Assembly (NCBI GenBank): GCA_964418205.1
Contig: CAYQKO010000001.1
Coordinates: 1 to 36,099, forward strand
Source: an uncultured Muribaculaceae bacterium
GTDB lineage: Bacteria; Bacillota_I; Bacilli_A; RF39; UBA660
DNA length: 36,099 nt
Reading direction: 5' to 3'
How positions within the stretch are numbered: the first letter of the stretch is position 1; each line of letters opens with the position of its first letter. A program made the translations under genes and the position numbers. Shown here one piece after another: positions 1,144 to 8,167 of the stretch. Under the pieces are notes generated by a model. The model was not told the DNA's origin, ran no database searches, and saw nothing but the letters and a program-made list of their open reading frames with translations.

Positions 1144-2796
1144 CTAAAATTTCATTTTTCTATAACTATCCTTTTCTATATTAAGATCATAAAAATGTTC
1201 AACAGTTTTTCTATCATAATATGCTAGTTCACCACGAGGTAAAATTAAAGTTCTTTCTATACCTAAAAAATCTACAAATTCAGGATTATGCGATACCACT
1301 AGCATTGGTCCTTCAAATGTTTTAAAAGTTTCTGCAATAATCATTTGAGTTTCAGGATCTAAGTGGTTAGTAGGTTCATCCAAAATAAGCAAGTTTGCAC
1401 CCTTTAATGATAGTTTAGCTAACGCAACTCTACTTTTTTCACCCGGAGATAAAACTCCAACCTTTTTAAATACATCATCCCCATAAAACAAAAATCTTCC
1501 TAATACACTTCTAACTTGTCGTTGAGACATACATAAGTCTGAAAAATTATCTAAAACCGATTTGTTATTATCTAATAATTCATGTTCTTGAGCATAATAA
1601 CCAACATCTGTTTTATTACCAATTTGAATAATCCCATTATCAGGAATAAGCTCTCCAACAATTAATTTTAATAAAGTAGATTTTCCAACACCATTTTCAC
1701 CGACAATTAAAAACTTTTCACCACGTCTAATCTCAAAGGATAAATCTTTAATTAAACTTTTATCAGAAGCTTTATTATATTTAAATGATAAATCTGTTAC
1801 TCTAAGTGGAAAAGTGGAACTTTCCCTAGTCATTTCCATTTGCACTTGTACTGACTTTTGAGTAGGAGCTACCTCAATTTTATTTTCTAAAATTTTTGCT
1901 AGTTTTTTCTCACGATCTTGTGCCATTTTTTTACGTTTACCTGATACTGATTGATATTTGTTCACAATATCTTGTAATCTTTTTATCTCTTTTTCTTGTT
2001 GTTCAGCTTCTTTTAACAATGATTTTTCTCTTTCATCATGTAATTTTATAAAGTTATCATAATTACCATCATATAACTCCATTTTCTTTGTCCTTTTATC
2101 TAAAAACAATATTTTTGTTGAGATTTCATTTAAAAAATCAACGTCATGAGAAATAACATAAACACTGCCTTTATAATTCTTTAAAAAATTTATCACAAAA
2201 GATTTTGTTTCATTATCCAAATGATTAGTAGGTTCGTCTAATAAAATAATCTCAGGTTTTGAATATAGTAATTTAGCAAATGCAACTTTTGATTTTTGTC
2301 CACCGGATAATTCATTTAATTTCTGATTTAACATACTATCAGGAATAGCCATACCATGAATAATTTTCAATAAATCGGAATCGGAACTATAATAATCCCA
2401 ATAGTCTAATTGGTTTTGTAATTTTTCTGCTTTTTTAAAAAGACTACTTTGTTTTGTTTCATTTATTTCAAGGGCAATCTTTTCATAAACCTGTTGTAAT
2501 TCATAATTCAATTTTTCTATTGGCCTACCTGATAATAAGAAGTCAAAAACGGTAATACTCATAGAAGGAACTTCATCACGAATAACTTGGGGTAACCACC
2601 CTTTACGAGCATTATCTTTAAATTTAATACTTCCGCTATCTGGCACTAAAATTCCTAAAATAACTTTTAAAAAAGTTGTTTTACCAGCTCCATTAACACC
2701 AACTATTCCTACTTTTTCCTTATCACCAACAACTAAATTTATATCGTCAAATACATCCTGTGTTCCAAAGGATACAGTTAAATTCTTTATTTGCAT
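1144..2796 (-). CDS. ABC-F family ATPase (two ABC cassettes, no TM domain; ribosome-associated translation-factor type)
   Basis: There are two Walker A motifs (GVNGAGKTT, GENGVGKST), two signatures (LSGGQKSK, LSPGEKSR) and two Walker B motifs (ILLDEPTNHLD, LILDEPTNHLD). A charged coiled linker (EREKSLLKEAEQQEKEIKRL...) separates the cassettes. The start is set at MQIKNLTV (2796), which has an AGAGGTGA RBS. The 18 upstream in-frame codons lack an RBS. Confidence 0.9.
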   Translation of the reverse strand: MQIKNLTVSFGTQDVFDDINLVVGDKEKVGIVGVNGAGKTTFLKVILGILVPDSGSIKFKDNARKGWLPQVIRDEVPSMSITVFDFLLSGRPIEKLNYELQQVYEKIALEINETKQSSLFKKAEKLQNQLDYWDYYSSDSDLLKIIHGMAIPDSMLNQKLNELSGGQKSKVAFAKLLYSKPEIILLDEPTNHLDNETKSFVINFLKNYKGSVYVISHDVDFLNEISTKILFLDKRTKKMELYDGNYDNFIKLHDEREKSLLKEAEQQEKEIKRLQDIVNKYQSVSGKRKKMAQDREKKLAKILENKIEVAPTQKSVQVQMEMTRESSTFPLRVTDLSFKYNKASDKSLIKDLSFEIRRGEKFLIVGENGVGKSTLLKLIVGELIPDNGIIQIGNKTDVGYYAQEHELLDNNKSVLDNFSDLCMSQRQVRSVLGRFLFYGDDVFKKVGVLSPGEKSRVALAKLSLKGANLLILDEPTNHLDPETQMIIAETFKTFEGPMLVVSHNPEFVDFLGIERTLILPRGELAYYDRKTVEHFYDLNIEKDSYRKMKF

Positions 2797-2891
2797 AAAC
2801 TCACCTCTTATCGTGCAAAATGCAACTTTTAAATTATTATACACAAACATTAATTAGTGTAAAATTAATTTCTGCTTTTTTGCAAATAACA

Positions 2892-3023: not shown

Positions 3024-3743
3024 TCAATATTGAATTTCAGCCAAATACAATCCTTGAGCAGGCAACACCGAAAATCTATGATTATCACGACAACACAAAG
3101 AATCTAAAACGGCTTGAATAGAAGTTCTACCACATCCCACATCCAAAACAGCTCCAACGATACTTCTAACCATATAACGATAAAAACCTGGACCAACAAT
3201 TTCAAAAATATAAAAATCGCCTTCCTGAAATACATCAAAAGAAAGAATTTCAGAAATATAGCTTTCTCTTTCCCCACTCACAAAATTTCGAAAATCATGA
3301 CTACCCAAAAAAAGCTTACAGCATTCTCTCATAGACTCCAGTGACAACGGAGCATAACATGCACAACTATAATCAGCATAAAAGCAATTTTTCTCACCAA
3401 CATATATCTTATATATATATTTTTTCAATTTTACACTATATCTTGCATGAAAGGACTTATCCACAATTTCTACAGAATTTATAACCACATAATCACATAA
3501 CAAACGATTCATAGCATACTTAAGTTTATCTAAAGAAATGTTTAAATCCAAATCAAAATGTACACATTGATCCAGAGCATGAACTTTGGCATCCGTTCTT
3601 CCAGCTCCTTTCACACTCACAAAAGAACCATTTAAAATAGAAAGCACCCTTTCAAGTTCATTTTGCACACCCCTACTATTATTCAATCTTTGAAACCCTT
3701 GAAACTTACTACCATCATAACTTATTCTTACTAAATATCTCAT
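3024..3743 (-). CDS. truA: tRNA pseudouridine(38-40) synthase TruA
   Basis: The motifs YDGSKFQGFQRL and GAGRTDAKVHA (catalytic Asp) and the C-terminal PAQGLYL are typical of TruA. The position upstream of rplM-rpsI is the conserved Bacillota synteny. Confidence 0.93.
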   Translation of the reverse strand: MRYLVRISYDGSKFQGFQRLNNSRGVQNELERVLSILNGSFVSVKGAGRTDAKVHALDQCVHFDLDLNISLDKLKYAMNRLLCDYVVINSVEIVDKSFHARYSVKLKKYIYKIYVGEKNCFYADYSCACYAPLSLESMRECCKLFLGSHDFRNFVSGERESYISEILSFDVFQEGDFYIFEIVGPGFYRYMVRSIVGAVLDVGCGRTSIQAVLDSLCCRDNHRFSVLPAQGLYLAEIQY

Positions 3744-4384
3744 GACACACCTCGATAAATGGCCTTTAAAGTCTCATCAAAAGTAATCTCATGATCTACC
3801 TTATGACCACAACTTTCAAAATACTTAATTAACTCTACCGTAAAAGGCATAGAAACATACTTATAAATTTCATCATCATAAAAATCAGTTATCAACTTAT
3901 ATTTTCCTTTCACAGTAAACAAATAAAACTGTTTAACCGTTTCACAAACAAAATTCATATCATTTTCAATCAAAATAAACGATTTCCCCTGTTTATACAT
4001 AAGATTTCGAAAAAAACGTTTAAAATATTCTTTTTCAGAATAAATCAATTCTTCAAAAAAATATTCACAAACAATAACCTCAGACTGCAGCAATAAAACC
4101 TTAGCTAAAAGAACCTTCTTCACTTCCAATTTTGTCAAACAATCCATAGAAACAGTAAATAAACTAGCCTTAAGTTTTACCAATTGTAAAGCCATACATA
4201 TTTTTTCATCCAAACAATCTGTCTCACGCTTAAGATAATCATAAACACAAATTTTCTCTTTCATTTTACATTCCAAAACATAACCCGAATGAACATCACT
4301 TGTAACTCCCCTAATCTTAGATGGAAAATTAACCAAAATAGAAAAATGATTCGGATTTAAAAATTGACTCATTTTGATTGCCAT
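3740..4384 (-). CDS. Degenerate EcfA2-like ABC ATPase-fold protein (no Walker A; eroded signature, Walker B and H-loop)
   Basis: The segment CLTKLEVKKVLLAKVLLLQSEVIVCEYFFEEL...SFILIENDMNFV aligns by eye to LSGGQ..RVAIA..L....ILILDEPT..LD....TVI.VTHDM. The C-terminal VSMPFTVELIKYFESCGH resembles the EcfA-specific C-terminal helices. There is a 4-nt ATGA-type overlap with truA and a 16-nt overlap with the upstream ORF. Confidence 0.6.
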   Translation of the reverse strand: MAIKMSQFLNPNHFSILVNFPSKIRGVTSDVHSGYVLECKMKEKICVYDYLKRETDCLDEKICMALQLVKLKASLFTVSMDCLTKLEVKKVLLAKVLLLQSEVIVCEYFFEELIYSEKEYFKRFFRNLMYKQGKSFILIENDMNFVCETVKQFYLFTVKGKYKLITDFYDDEIYKYVSMPFTVELIKYFESCGHKVDHEITFDETLKAIYRGVS

Positions 4385-5040
4385 ATAGCTTCCTCCAACT
4401 CTTCCTTACTACAATATATCGCATCCACTAGTCCATAATATCCCAGTTGTTTAGACAAATTAACATAAAACGGTAAAGAATAACCAAGTAACTTCATTAA
4501 TTTTTCTTCCTTTAAAACCAAAGCAGTTTTTCCTTCAATCGCAACTTGATTATTTTTTAGTACGATTAAATAATCAAACAAAACTGTTTGCTCAATTTGA
4601 TTCGTCACATAAAACAACTTAATATTTTTCTTCCGAAAAAAATTCAATAAAATAGACATATCATTACGAGACAATTTTAATTGTTCACAAAACAAAAAAT
4701 CAGGATTTTCCATAATTTTTATACAAAGACCATACTTCATTCCCGTAGCATCTTTCAAAAAATTCTTTAAAAACTCTTGAGTATCAAAATCTAACTTTTC
4801 GAATGAAAAAAAAGTTTCCCAATTATCTAAATTTTTACTCTCCCCAAAATAAAAAGAAACCTTACCATTCGTCTGATACAAGTCAGAATGAGAAACAATA
4901 TATTTTAATAACATGGATTTCCCCGTACCGCTTTCTCCTAAAAGACAAACATTACAATCCAGCTGAATATCAAAAGAAGATATCATAACCTTATTATCAA
5001 ACATTAAATTACAATTTTTAAATAGAAAATACTTATCCAT
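4369..5040 (-). CDS. Degenerate EcfA1-like ABC ATPase-fold protein (Walker A retained; signature, Walker B Glu and H-loop His lost)
   Basis: Walker A GESGTGKS is at 4915..4938. The Walker B position reads DFLFCEQ and the H-loop position reads YVTNQ. The C-terminal GYSLPFYVNLSKQLGYYGL resembles the EcfA C-terminus. The ORF track starts at a TTG (5085), but the ATG at 5040 (MDKYFLFKNCN) matches the usual ABC N-terminus. Confidence 0.65.
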   Translation of the reverse strand: MDKYFLFKNCNLMFDNKVMISSFDIQLDCNVCLLGESGTGKSMLLKYIVSHSDLYQTNGKVSFYFGESKNLDNWETFFSFEKLDFDTQEFLKNFLKDATGMKYGLCIKIMENPDFLFCEQLKLSRNDMSILLNFFRKKNIKLFYVTNQIEQTVLFDYLIVLKNNQVAIEGKTALVLKEEKLMKLLGYSLPFYVNLSKQLGYYGLVDAIYCSKEELEEAIWQSK

Positions 5041-5085: not shown

Positions 5086-5394
5086 CTAATCACTAGTTGG
5101 AATTTTAATAATATATTCACCTGGTAAAGAATACATGTATTTTTCACGTGCATAACGAGCAACATATTCATCATCATGTAGCTTCGTCACTTCACTAGTT
5201 AAGCTTTCTTCTTCTTCTAAAAGTTCGTCATAATAAACATTTAAAGAAGCAATTTGCTGTTTATTAGAAACAATAGCCATCCAATCCTTAAAAATAGATG
5301 CCACCGAAAAAGAAACAACACCAAAAAACAGAATTGTCAAAACAAAAAATCTTTTTCTAGCTTTAGAAGATTTATGCTTTTTCACACATGCCAC
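5086..5394 (-). CDS. divIC: Septum formation initiator family protein (DivIC/FtsB-like)
   Basis: It has a basic N-terminus, a single TM (FFVLTILFFGVVSFSVASIF), a coiled coil and a C-terminal ARYAREKYMYSLPGEYIIKIP, which is typical of DivIC/FtsB. It follows yabP-yabQ as in B. subtilis. The start is a GTG at 5394, or the in-frame GTG at 5385, which has an AGGTGG RBS. Confidence 0.75.
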   Translation of the reverse strand: MACVKKHKSSKARKRFFVLTILFFGVVSFSVASIFKDWMAIVSNKQQIASLNVYYDELLEEEESLTSEVTKLHDDEYVARYAREKYMYSLPGEYIIKIPTSD

Positions 5395-5417: not shown

Positions 5418-5732
5418 TCACTTGTAAATATACTTTGCAATTTTACGAGGCAAAACTTTATTTAAGTTGACATTTTTATGTAAAAAGCCATAAGCAAAAA
5501 AGCCTAAAAAAACAAAAATTAGAAAATAAATATGAATAATTCCATTATTTAAATAATATAAACTCAAAACATACATCAAAACAATATCTATAACAAACAA
5601 CACCGTAGTAATATAACGCATCAATACGGAATAAGTATCCGTTATTTTAAAATGAAAATTTGTTAATATATGAAAGAAAAAACCAAAACAAAAAGAAACA
5701 AAAAAGGACAACAATTGAGTTACTTCATCCAT
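5418..5732 (-). CDS. yabQ: Spore cortex biosynthesis protein YabQ-like small membrane protein
   Basis: A 104-aa protein with three hydrophobic helices. It overlaps the yabP stop by 1 nt and precedes divIC, which is the conserved yabP-yabQ-divIC order. Confidence 0.7.
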   Translation of the reverse strand: MDEVTQLLSFFVSFCFGFFFHILTNFHFKITDTYSVLMRYITTVLFVIDIVLMYVLSLYYLNNGIIHIYFLIFVFLGFFAYGFLHKNVNLNKVLPRKIAKYIYK

Positions 5733-6025
5733 TATTTAAATAACTTAGCCATAAAGCTTTCTTCCTTGGCTTTTCCTCCATTTTTTTCTAAATACTGATA
5801 ACTATTGATTTTTCCTTTAATACGAACATTTCCATCATGAGTATCCAACTTTAATATTTCAAGTCCACTGCCCTTCAAAAGCAATACACCCATCGTTGTT
5901 TCAAGTAAAAATTCCTCATGATCAAAACTAGTAATTTTCTTTACTCCACTCAAATAAATTTCCCTTCGATCAATAATTTTAACTTCATGATTACTATGTA
6001 CTAATTCAATATTTTCTTGTTCCAT
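5732..6025 (-). CDS. yabP: Sporulation protein YabP
   Basis: IDRREIYLSGVKKITSFDHEEFLLETTMGVLLLKGSGLEILKLD....V.I.G.I matches the YabP/YqfC-family core. The synteny with yabQ also supports the call. Confidence 0.88.
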   Translation of the reverse strand: MEQENIELVHSNHEVKIIDRREIYLSGVKKITSFDHEEFLLETTMGVLLLKGSGLEILKLDTHDGNVRIKGKINSYQYLEKNGGKAKEESFMAKLFK

Positions 6026-7608: not shown

Positions 7609-7869
7609 TTATTCTTCAGCCTTATTATATTCATCTAAAATTGCATTCGTAAATTCTGTACGTACATCAGGATTAATTGGATGACAAACATCTTTATATT
7701 CTCCAGTAGCCGTTTTTCTACTTGGCATAGCTATAAAGAGCCCATTATCCCCTTCAATAATTCGAATATCATGAATAGCAAATGAATCATCCAATAAAAC
7801 AGATGCAATTCCTCTCAATCTTGAATTTTCTTTCGTAATCTTACGAACACTTACAGATGTAATCTTCAT
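7609..7869 (-). CDS. spoVG: Septation/sporulation regulator SpoVG
   Basis: MKITSVSVRKI....LRGIASVLLDDSFAIHDIRIIEGDNGLFIAMPSRKT..GEYKDVCHPIN matches the SpoVG family almost motif for motif. Confidence 0.96.
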   Translation of the reverse strand: MKITSVSVRKITKENSRLRGIASVLLDDSFAIHDIRIIEGDNGLFIAMPSRKTATGEYKDVCHPINPDVRTEFTNAILDEYNKAEE

Positions 7870-7910
7870 AATATTTTCTCCTCCTAAAGTTATATCTAAC
7901 TTATACCTAT

Positions 7911-7939
7911 ATTTTAAAACATACGTTACTAGAATTCAA
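7911..7939 (-). promoter_or_regulatory. Candidate sigma-A-type promoter for spoVG
   Basis: The minus strand reads TTGAAT (7939..7934), a 17-nt spacer, then TAAAAT (7916..7911). It lies about 40 nt upstream of the spoVG GGAGGAG RBS. Confidence 0.45.
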
Positions 7940-7944
7940 GCATT

Positions 7945-8157
7945 TTACGGCAATTTGACAACAACATCACCAATAATCACATCAGAATAATTAAAACTTT
8001 TCTGATTTCCATCAATCAAAACCGTAAAAACATAAGGGTAAATACCTGAAAGCGTACCATAATACTGATAATTTTTATTACGCATCCCATAAACCTCAAC
8101 AACTACCTGCTTATTCAAATACTTTTTTATCTCATCTCGAACAATATCTAGATTCAT
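7945..8157 (-). CDS. veg: Veg protein (biofilm/sporulation-associated small protein)
   Basis: IKKYLNKQVVVEVYGMRNKNYQYYGTLSGIYPYVFTVLIDGNQKSFNYSDVIIGDV resembles B. subtilis Veg (G.L.E.YPSVF.....SFSYADIL). The start is set at MNLDIV (8157), which has an AAGGAGG RBS. The ORF track extension to 8187 overlaps yabG. Confidence 0.85.
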   Translation of the reverse strand: MNLDIVRDEIKKYLNKQVVVEVYGMRNKNYQYYGTLSGIYPYVFTVLIDGNQKSFNYSDVIIGDVVVKLP

Positions 8158-8167
8158 ATATCCTCCT

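Follow-up and report, generated by a model that had tools for sequence, protein, structure and literature searches.

Shortened, motif-eroded descendants of EcfA1 and EcfA2 lie upstream of truA, without a detectable EcfT and under purifying selection, in an uncultured RF39 lineage

In this study, we analysed two overlapping open reading frames (ORFs), ORF1 and ORF2, that lie directly upstream of truA on a stretch of 36,099 nucleotides (nt; hereafter the window) from an uncultured Muribaculaceae bacterium (GTDB lineage Bacteria; Bacillota_I; Bacilli_A; RF39; UBA660). The window is one whole contig (CAYQKO010000001.1, assembly GCA_964418205.1) of a metagenome-assembled genome of 145 contigs and 1.21 Mb that is 90.8% complete. 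An earlier reading of the nucleotide sequence, hereafter the original prediction, took the two ORFs to be catalytically dead descendants of EcfA1 and EcfA2, the ATPases of transporters of the energy-coupling factor (ECF) type, standing without EcfT. Transcription in this part of the window runs on the minus strand in the order yabP, yabQ, divIC, ORF1, ORF2, truA, a gene for an ABC-F protein (of the ATP-binding cassette, ABC, type), rplM and rpsI. The pair and its immediate surroundings are laid out as follows.

5086..5394, minus strand: divIC (septum formation initiator), directly upstream of ORF1 (Pfam DivIC, E 6.9e-17)
4369..5040, minus strand: ORF1, a predicted EcfA1-derived pseudo-ATPase of 223 amino acids (aa), start codon ATG at 5040 (NCBIfam, AlphaFold2, Foldseek)
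4392..4396, minus strand: ribosome-binding site (GGAGG) for ORF2, within the 3' end of ORF1 (sequence read)
3740..4384, minus strand: ORF2, a predicted EcfA2-derived pseudo-ATPase of 214 aa with the P-loop and its helix deleted (NCBIfam, AlphaFold2, Foldseek)
3024..3743, minus strand: truA (Pfam PseudoU_synth_1, E 1.5e-28)

Rereading of the sequence bore out the two ORFs, their short lengths (originally put at ~215-225 aa) and both overlaps, which amount to 16 nt between ORF1 and ORF2 and to 4 nt (ATGA) between the stop codon of ORF2 and the start codon of truA. Translational coupling of the pair is implied by the position of the GGAGG site of ORF2 within the 3' end of ORF1, and a scan of the coding strand from divIC to truA revealed no terminator-like site. 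A longer version of ORF1, starting at a TTG codon (5085) and 238 aa in length, was rejected because relatives align only from its residues 12-16 and several of them carry stops upstream; these alignments support ATG 5040 as the start. Since ORF2 overlaps truA, there is no room for a polytopic ORF between them, and the locus holds no EcfT, as the original prediction had pointed out.

Descent of the pair from EcfA1 and EcfA2 is supported by profile searches, by fold, by synteny and by continuous intermediates in the same family. The top NCBIfam match of ORF1 is TIGR04520 (ECF_ATPase_1, E 4.4e-11) and that of ORF2 is TIGR04521 (ECF_ATPase_2, E 1.1e-5), both far under the curated equivalog cut-offs (42.7 bits against 315, or ~13%, for ORF1; 24.6 bits against 330, or ~7%, for ORF2). 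Pfam recognises only the P-loop end of ABC_tran in ORF1, at 24.7 bits and just below the cut-off, and gives no match for ORF2. When a profile of 40 ORF1 homologues was used, its C-terminal 125 positions aligned to the EcfA1 chains 8bmr_A, 5jsz_A and 4huq_B, and a profile of 36 ORF2 homologues matched the EcfA2 chains 4huq_A and 9kym_B. AlphaFold2 models of the two proteins (predicted local distance difference test scores of 91.0 for ORF1 and 88.1 for ORF2) have the ABC nucleotide-binding fold, with query-normalised Foldseek TM-scores of 0.59-0.71; the best matches in the PDB are to EcfA1 for ORF1 (8bmp_A, E 8e-12) and to EcfA2 for ORF2 (4huq_A, E 8e-9). The position is likewise orthologous, an A1-A2 pair directly upstream of truA with rplM-rpsI downstream, and both gene order and position match the canonical ecfA1-ecfA2-ecfT-truA arrangement of relatives (loci L055, L059 and L046). 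ORF1 and ORF2 are therefore confirmed as shortened, motif-eroded descendants of EcfA1 and EcfA2. The motifs that remain, or the sequences that stand in their place, are the following.

4915..4938, minus strand: ORF1 Walker A, GESGTGKS, the one canonical nucleotide-binding motif that the pair retains
4681..4701, minus strand: ORF1 degenerate Walker B, DFLFCEQ, placed by profile alignment onto VIILDES of 8bmr_A
4597..4611, minus strand: ORF1 H-loop position, YVTNQ, His replaced by Asn, aligned to ITHDLE of EcfA1
4372..4515, minus strand: ORF1 C-terminal EcfA-type helices (LKEEKLMKLLGYSLPFYVNLSKQLGYYGL...WQSK), aligned to EcfA1 residues ~225-278
4124..4138, minus strand: ORF2 LTKLE at the LSGGQ signature position, aligned to LSGGE of ABC ATPases
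4061..4078, minus strand: ORF2 VIVCEY at the Walker B position (profile and family alignments)
3959..3973, minus strand: ORF2 LIEND at the H-loop position, His replaced by Asn (profile and family alignments)
3743..3886, minus strand: ORF2 C-terminal EcfA2-type domain (DFYDDEIYKYVSMPFTVELIKYFESCGH...TLKAIYRG), with many invariant columns

HMMER alignments to solved chains and a family-wide MAFFT series upheld the motif register that had been proposed for ORF1, and these alignments, which answer a check that the original prediction had called for, found the catalytic motifs not to be intact. The 40 homologues of ORF1, which are 33-62% identical, all share the Walker A residues G40 and K41 and nearly all share G35 and G38. 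At its Walker B, FLFCEQ occupies the hhhhDE position, with Asp changed to Glu and the catalytic Glu to Gln, and relatives carry CED, CDD or IDD here. The H-loop reads VTNQ where THD is expected, an LSGGQ signature is absent, and ~45 residues of the helical subdomain are gone. For ORF2, the register of LTKLE, VIVCEY and IEND stood, but the proposal that GVTSDVHSG replaces the P-loop did not: the P-loop and its helix, ~55-60 residues, have been deleted rather than mutated, and by alignment and DSSP GVTSDVHSG sits immediately upstream of the strand that bears the Q-loop of canonical relatives and continues into it. Of LTKLE, E87 never varies among the 36 homologues and L83 and T84 hardly do; in VIVCEY, the catalytic Glu is replaced by Tyr (His in many relatives). 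Of the complete catalytic set, ORF1 thus retains Walker A only and ORF2 nothing; judged from their motifs, both proteins are predicted to be catalytically dead, in agreement with the original prediction.

In each of the two ORFs, conservation is highest in the C-terminal motifs. In ORF1 the C-terminal helices are the best-conserved part of the protein, with E178, E179, K180, G186, P190, F191, L199 and Y202 invariant; P190, F191 and W220 of ORF1 are invariant across the whole family, as are K207 and Y210 of ORF2 across the whole family series. The group-II C-terminal helical extension is present, residues 103-227 of the ORF1 profile aligning to EcfA1 149-278. In group II transporters this extension mediates A-A' dimerisation, and the Q-helix motif, X-P-D/E-X-Q-hydrophobic, forms the groove that receives the coupling-helix arginines of EcfT (PMC6828968). 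The family alignment shows that the Q-helix motif has been lost from both ORFs: the aligned columns read YFGESKNLD in ORF1 and VTSDVHSGY in ORF2, against NPDNQF and SPEEQF in canonical relatives of the same family.

A search of the window's own genome (91% complete) with Pfam CbiQ gave no match. Among 24 genomes of the same genus the model gave only two matches, both sub-threshold, and 16 of 16 outgroup genomes had an EcfT. As Pfam misses divergent EcfTs of this family, we built three hidden Markov models (HMMs) for EcfT. The first draws on all 23 proteins in the EcfT slot of relatives, the second on the divergent ones alone and the third on outgroup EcfTs. Every canonical EcfT is picked up by the divergent-only model, at E 1e-9 to 1e-21. 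Run with filters off against the window's own genome, the three models found nothing better than E 0.015 (best E 0.015-0.1). The genome-wide search for ecfT suggested by the original prediction therefore found no EcfT partner with Pfam CbiQ or with the three family and outgroup models in this 90.8% complete genome. The five S-component families PF12822, PF07155, PF02632, PF09515 and PF06177 were also negative in the window's own genome, a result that does not discriminate, since two relatives with canonical modules (G062 and G187) are likewise negative for PF12822 and PF07155, the two families tested in them. Missing S-components are accordingly weakened as proof of ECF loss. The family-wide count of Pfam CbiQ matches (39 of 151 genomes) was set aside as a measure of EcfT loss as well; it underestimates EcfT, and many of the apparent negatives carry a divergent EcfT in the slot.

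Within the genus, ORF1 is present in 23 of 24 genomes and ORF2 in 22. Two genus genomes without either ORF also lack truA; this points to an assembly gap, and we did not accept them as natural knock-outs. All 19 sister-species loci that were fetched preserve the order divIC-ORF1-ORF2-truA; ORF2 is intact in each of them whose contig covers it in full, and 18 have an intact ORF1. At the remaining locus (genome G010, L023:955-1420), ORF1 has an in-frame TAA together with 10 consecutive N and an insert that looks foreign. The stop coincides with the gap and the insert, so we rejected it as a true pseudogene; the disruption is probably a mis-scaffold. In close pairs with unsaturated divergence, the ratio of nonsynonymous to synonymous substitution rates (dN/dS) is 0.11-0.25 for ORF1, 0.04-0.12 for ORF2 and 0.10-0.21 for truA. 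For the C-terminal half of ORF1, one of six close pairs gives 0.48, at a dS of 0.015, and the other five give 0.09-0.15; the C-terminal half of ORF2 gives 0.03-0.15, and the N-terminal halves give 0.09-0.8. At several genus loci ORF2 is better conserved than truA, for example at L010 (73% against 59% identity). The pair is under purifying selection about as tight as that on neighbouring truA. This follow-up of conservation and dN/dS in relatives, which the original prediction had recommended, found no general disruption or absence of the ORFs in close relatives, the state expected of plain pseudogenes.

The genus belongs to a family of at least 86 genera of uncultured bacteria with genomes of 0.6-1.6 Mb, in which four states of the locus occur. 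Fully canonical A1-A2-T modules are found at L055, L059 and L046. A recognisable EcfT beside one or two eroded ATPases is found at L057, L056, L058, L062 and L066-L068, and ATPases that appear dead by motif beside a divergent EcfT at L049-L051 and L069-L073. In the fourth state there is no EcfT (hereafter T-less), and the ATPases have shrunk to varying degrees, ORF1 being between 267 and 145 aa long and ORF2 between 270 and 183 aa. The divergent EcfTs have 4-6 transmembrane (TM) segments in most cases and 3 in L050; they align to EcfT end to end at an hhalign probability of 68%, and our own HMMs confirmed the homology.

Several of these loci deserve mention in their own right. At L049:4897-5556, L050:5829-6470, L051:4990-5526 and L069-L073, the T-slot between ecfA2 and truA holds an ORF of 178-250 aa for which 3-6 TM segments are predicted; three T-slot ORFs that were run through Pfam gave no CbiQ match although they are EcfT homologues, and that of L070 weakly matches the EcfT model built from outgroups. 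At L062 (G088) and L066-L068 (G120, G095 and G137), a recognisable EcfT stands beside ATPases without a P-loop, catalytic Glu or H-loop His, and these three-gene ECF modules look catalytically dead or single-site. At L060:6076-6886 (G077), where EcfT and EcfA2 are intact, EcfA1 is split into ORFs of 111 and 162 aa, which reflects either a frameshift or pseudogene or an assembly error.

On a rough tree from truA, rplM and rpsI, the T-less state requires at least four changes. The window falls in a T-less clade of 15 taxa and many genera (support of 82 in the Shimodaira-Hasegawa-like approximate likelihood-ratio test), sister to G146 (98). EcfT thus appears to have been lost at least four times, the pair being retained each time. 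With a broad EcfA2-type profile, most of the 151 genomes sampled from the family yield a full-length match, and ~22 of the 151 have only best matches of generic ABC strength (E ~1e-19 to 1e-22). Among 1.84 billion representative proteins, the genus-type ORF2 profile reached E <= 1e-30 with only 14 clusters and E <= 1e-10 with 101, so the phenomenon is narrow at those limits. Annotation pipelines label such proteins hypothetical, as in the case of the ORF2 homologue of Candidatus Ventrenecus avicola (HIR74926.1).

The original prediction had left two options, recent relics of ECF loss or pseudo-ATPases with a new role. The first is not supported, in view of the constant gene order at 19 of 19 loci, of dN/dS values like those of truA and of a T-less clade of many genera, and the second appears to be the better-supported branch. 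In the reading that we consider probable, the pair forms a constitutive heterodimer, a pseudo-ATPase whose role, new or previously hidden, does not depend on EcfT. ORF1 and ORF2 would be the orthologues of EcfA1 and EcfA2 in a lineage that has lost EcfT and would no longer power a transporter. The two proteins would persist in the cytoplasm as this heterodimer, held together by the C-terminal helices of group-II EcfA, which are better conserved than any other part of either protein. Such a heterodimer is suggested by the survival of the second half of each protein, chiefly these helices, from canonical to minimal forms. In the genus, the Walker A of ORF1 would face the LTxxE signature remnant of ORF2 in one residual composite nucleotide site, as is suggested by the invariance of the Walker A Gly and Lys in 40 sequences and the near-invariance of LTxxE; the second nucleotide site would be gone. 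Because the catalytic Glu, H-loop His, Q-loop and A-loop are missing, the residual site would be expected to bind nucleotide with little or no hydrolysis, and the pair might serve as a scaffold or a switch-type pseudo-enzyme.

Other explanations have to be weighed against this reading. That the similarity is spurious, arising from chance or generic ABC-like ORFs, with the motif loss an artefact of alignment by eye, could draw on the scores far below the curated EcfA cut-offs and on the blank Pfam result for ORF2. However, independent evidence from profiles, fold and synteny all leads to EcfA1 and EcfA2, and HMMER alignments to solved structures together with the family alignment uphold the motif register, so that this explanation is effectively refuted. 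A transporter hidden from our searches is a more serious candidate, though we think it unlikely. The pair would bind a membrane protein that is encoded at another place in the genome and has escaped recognition, whether a highly diverged EcfT or a protein without homology to it, perhaps with very divergent S-components, and the single residual site would energise or gate it. The strict conservation of the ORF1 Walker A in the genus would fit such a role, as would the capacity of EcfT in this family to outrun Pfam (the T-slots of L049-L051, L069 and L071-L073 are CbiQ-negative where tested and yet hold EcfT homologues); the S-component models also miss those of relatives with canonical modules, so their silence proves little, and the genome is only ~91% complete. 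Yet the groove motif of the Q-helix, with which EcfT is bound, is lost from both ORFs, much of the ORF1 helical subdomain is deleted, and the sole remaining site is without catalytic Glu and H-loop His. Nor did canonical and divergent EcfT models find a partner in the genome even with filters off, and CbiQ rises above the cut-off in none of the 24 genus genomes.

There is a similarly small chance that the pair consists of slowly decaying relics without a function as proteins. The polar effect of nonsense mutations on translationally coupled truA (and on rplM and rpsI at loci where they come next) would then be all that keeps the frames open, and shortening in frame and the erosion of motifs would be tolerated. 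The continuous erosion series in the family, with in-frame shortening to 145 aa (ORF1) and 183 aa (ORF2), agrees with decay, as do the overlapping starts and stops, which are ancestral and kept, the faster N-terminal halves (dN/dS up to 0.8) and the lineages with dN/dS of 0.7-0.9. Polarity, however, guards frames and not residues. In the genus, dN/dS of the two ORFs (0.04-0.25, and mostly 0.03-0.15 in the C-terminal halves) equals or beats that of truA, long motifs are invariant across 36-40 homologues, and five residues (ORF2 K207 and Y210; ORF1 P190, F191 and W220) do not vary in the whole family. In our judgement, a T-less clade of many genera would also far exceed the time for which a neutral sequence should last in a 1.2-Mb genome.

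Several observations nevertheless weigh against a conserved heterodimeric pseudo-ATPase. The genome is a draft of 145 contigs at 90.8% completeness, and one genus genome (G010) carries the in-frame TAA in ORF1, beside a gap and a foreign-looking insert. Mirror-tree analysis gave r = 0.77 and a partial r = 0.48 for ORF1 and ORF2, a signal that does not stand out from the similar partial values involving truA and divIC (0.35-0.52). In other T-less genera the ORF1 P-loop has been deleted altogether (L036, L038-L040, L042 and L044), so nucleotide binding cannot be what any shared function has at its core. Part of the family-wide pattern, moreover, is real relaxation or decay. Two species of a single genus, represented by L045 (G168) and L062 (G088), differ in the presence of EcfT, which looks like an ongoing transition, and in these seemingly transitional lineages the pair has dN/dS of 0.94 and 0.71, with 0.11 for truA. 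Between the older T-less loci L037 and L043 the values are low again, 0.24 and 0.13; with dS partly saturated, the sequence of high and then low values fits relaxation followed by renewed constraint.

Rather than acquiring a role after the loss of EcfT, EcfA and EcfA' may already have an EcfT-independent function in canonical Bacillota that the T-less lineages expose, a proposal to which we give a small probability. Such a function, possibly tied to the truA-rplM-rpsI operon (ribosomal and tRNA modification genes) that always houses the two, would explain both the survival of the pair through at least four EcfT losses and the conservation of the C-terminal dimerisation module from canonical to minimal forms. 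We rejected a functional link to divIC, as the upstream neighbour differs among T-less genera (WhiA/CofD-type genes take its place in L038-L042), and an obligatory link to truA is weakened by L048, where the pair is directly followed by rplM-rpsI.

ECF transporters take up vitamins, with ATP hydrolysis driving the toppling of their S-components. They attract interest both as targets for antibiotics and as a model of how ABC importers work, and we know of no role ascribed to their ATPases apart from EcfT. Our literature search found no paper describing EcfT-less or dead EcfA pairs. If the favoured reading of a conserved pseudo-ATPase pair is true, it would add a bacterial ABC pseudo-enzyme under selection of housekeeping strength for which we found no description in the searchable literature, as well as a hint that EcfA/EcfA' have a second function. 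Within one family, the graded series may be regarded as a natural experiment on the dismantling of a multi-subunit transporter, in which the C-terminal dimer module would be the indispensable surface. Beyond the original prediction, what is new here is the deletion of the ORF2 P-loop, the loss of the Q-helix, the caveat on S-components, the family-specific EcfT search and the likely number of EcfT losses, at least four. In practical terms, Pfam-based ECF calls undercount EcfT in this family, and since CbiQ misses its divergent EcfTs, metabolic reconstructions of these gut bacteria are not a reliable guide to whether ECF is present.

The surroundings of the pair offer some further observations. 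Between truA and rplM, the ABC-F gene (window 1144-2850) encodes 568 aa with two intact ABC cassettes, and nothing resembling it was seen between truA and rplM in the family loci checked. At 5418-6025 and 7609-8941 the window encodes YabQ (a weak match, under the Pfam cut-off), YabP, SpoVG, Veg and YabG, and a full Spo0A is encoded elsewhere in the same genome (G000:C14:15602-15913). This combination suggests a spore-former with a genome of only ~1.2-1.3 Mb.

Among known systems, the group II EcfA1/EcfA2 ATPases (L. delbrueckii ECF-FolT2, 5JSZ, 5D3M and 8BMP-8BMS; L. brevis, 4HUQ) are the closest to the pair. They share with it the ABC fold and C-terminal helices, a gene order of A1 before A2 in which start and stop overlap, a place immediately upstream of truA and, although the ABC-F gene intervenes in the window, rplM-rpsI further downstream, and they are the best sequence and structure matches of both ORFs. 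Unlike them, ORF1 and ORF2 are ~55-70 residues shorter, both have lost the catalytic Glu, H-loop His, LSGGQ and Q-helix, ORF2 has had its Walker A deleted, and no EcfT was found with the pair. Heterodimeric ABC proteins with one degenerate site, such as TM287/288, CFTR (site 1) and TAP1/2, keep one fully catalytic site and stay coupled to transmembrane domains. By analogy with their asymmetric composite sites, one site of the pair may hold nucleotide without turnover and have a structural or regulatory part; in contrast to those proteins, neither site of ORF1/ORF2 appears catalytic by motif and no membrane domain was found. As is proposed for the pair, the soluble ABC ATPases (ABC-F/EttA, ABCE1 and SufC) are cytoplasmic, non-transporting proteins of the ABC fold, and ABCE1 and ABC-F chains are among the matches of the ORF2 profile over the signature and Walker B region. 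Those proteins, however, are active ATPases with intact motifs and accessory domains of their own; the likeness is generic to ABC proteins, whereas the specific ancestry of the pair is EcfA. Within its own family, the motif-dead or half-dead A1-A2-T modules (L062 and L066-L068 with a recognisable EcfT; L049-L051 and L071-L072 with a divergent one) show the same process of erosion, along which the window's lineage has gone further, with the EcfT gene gone and both ATPases shortened.

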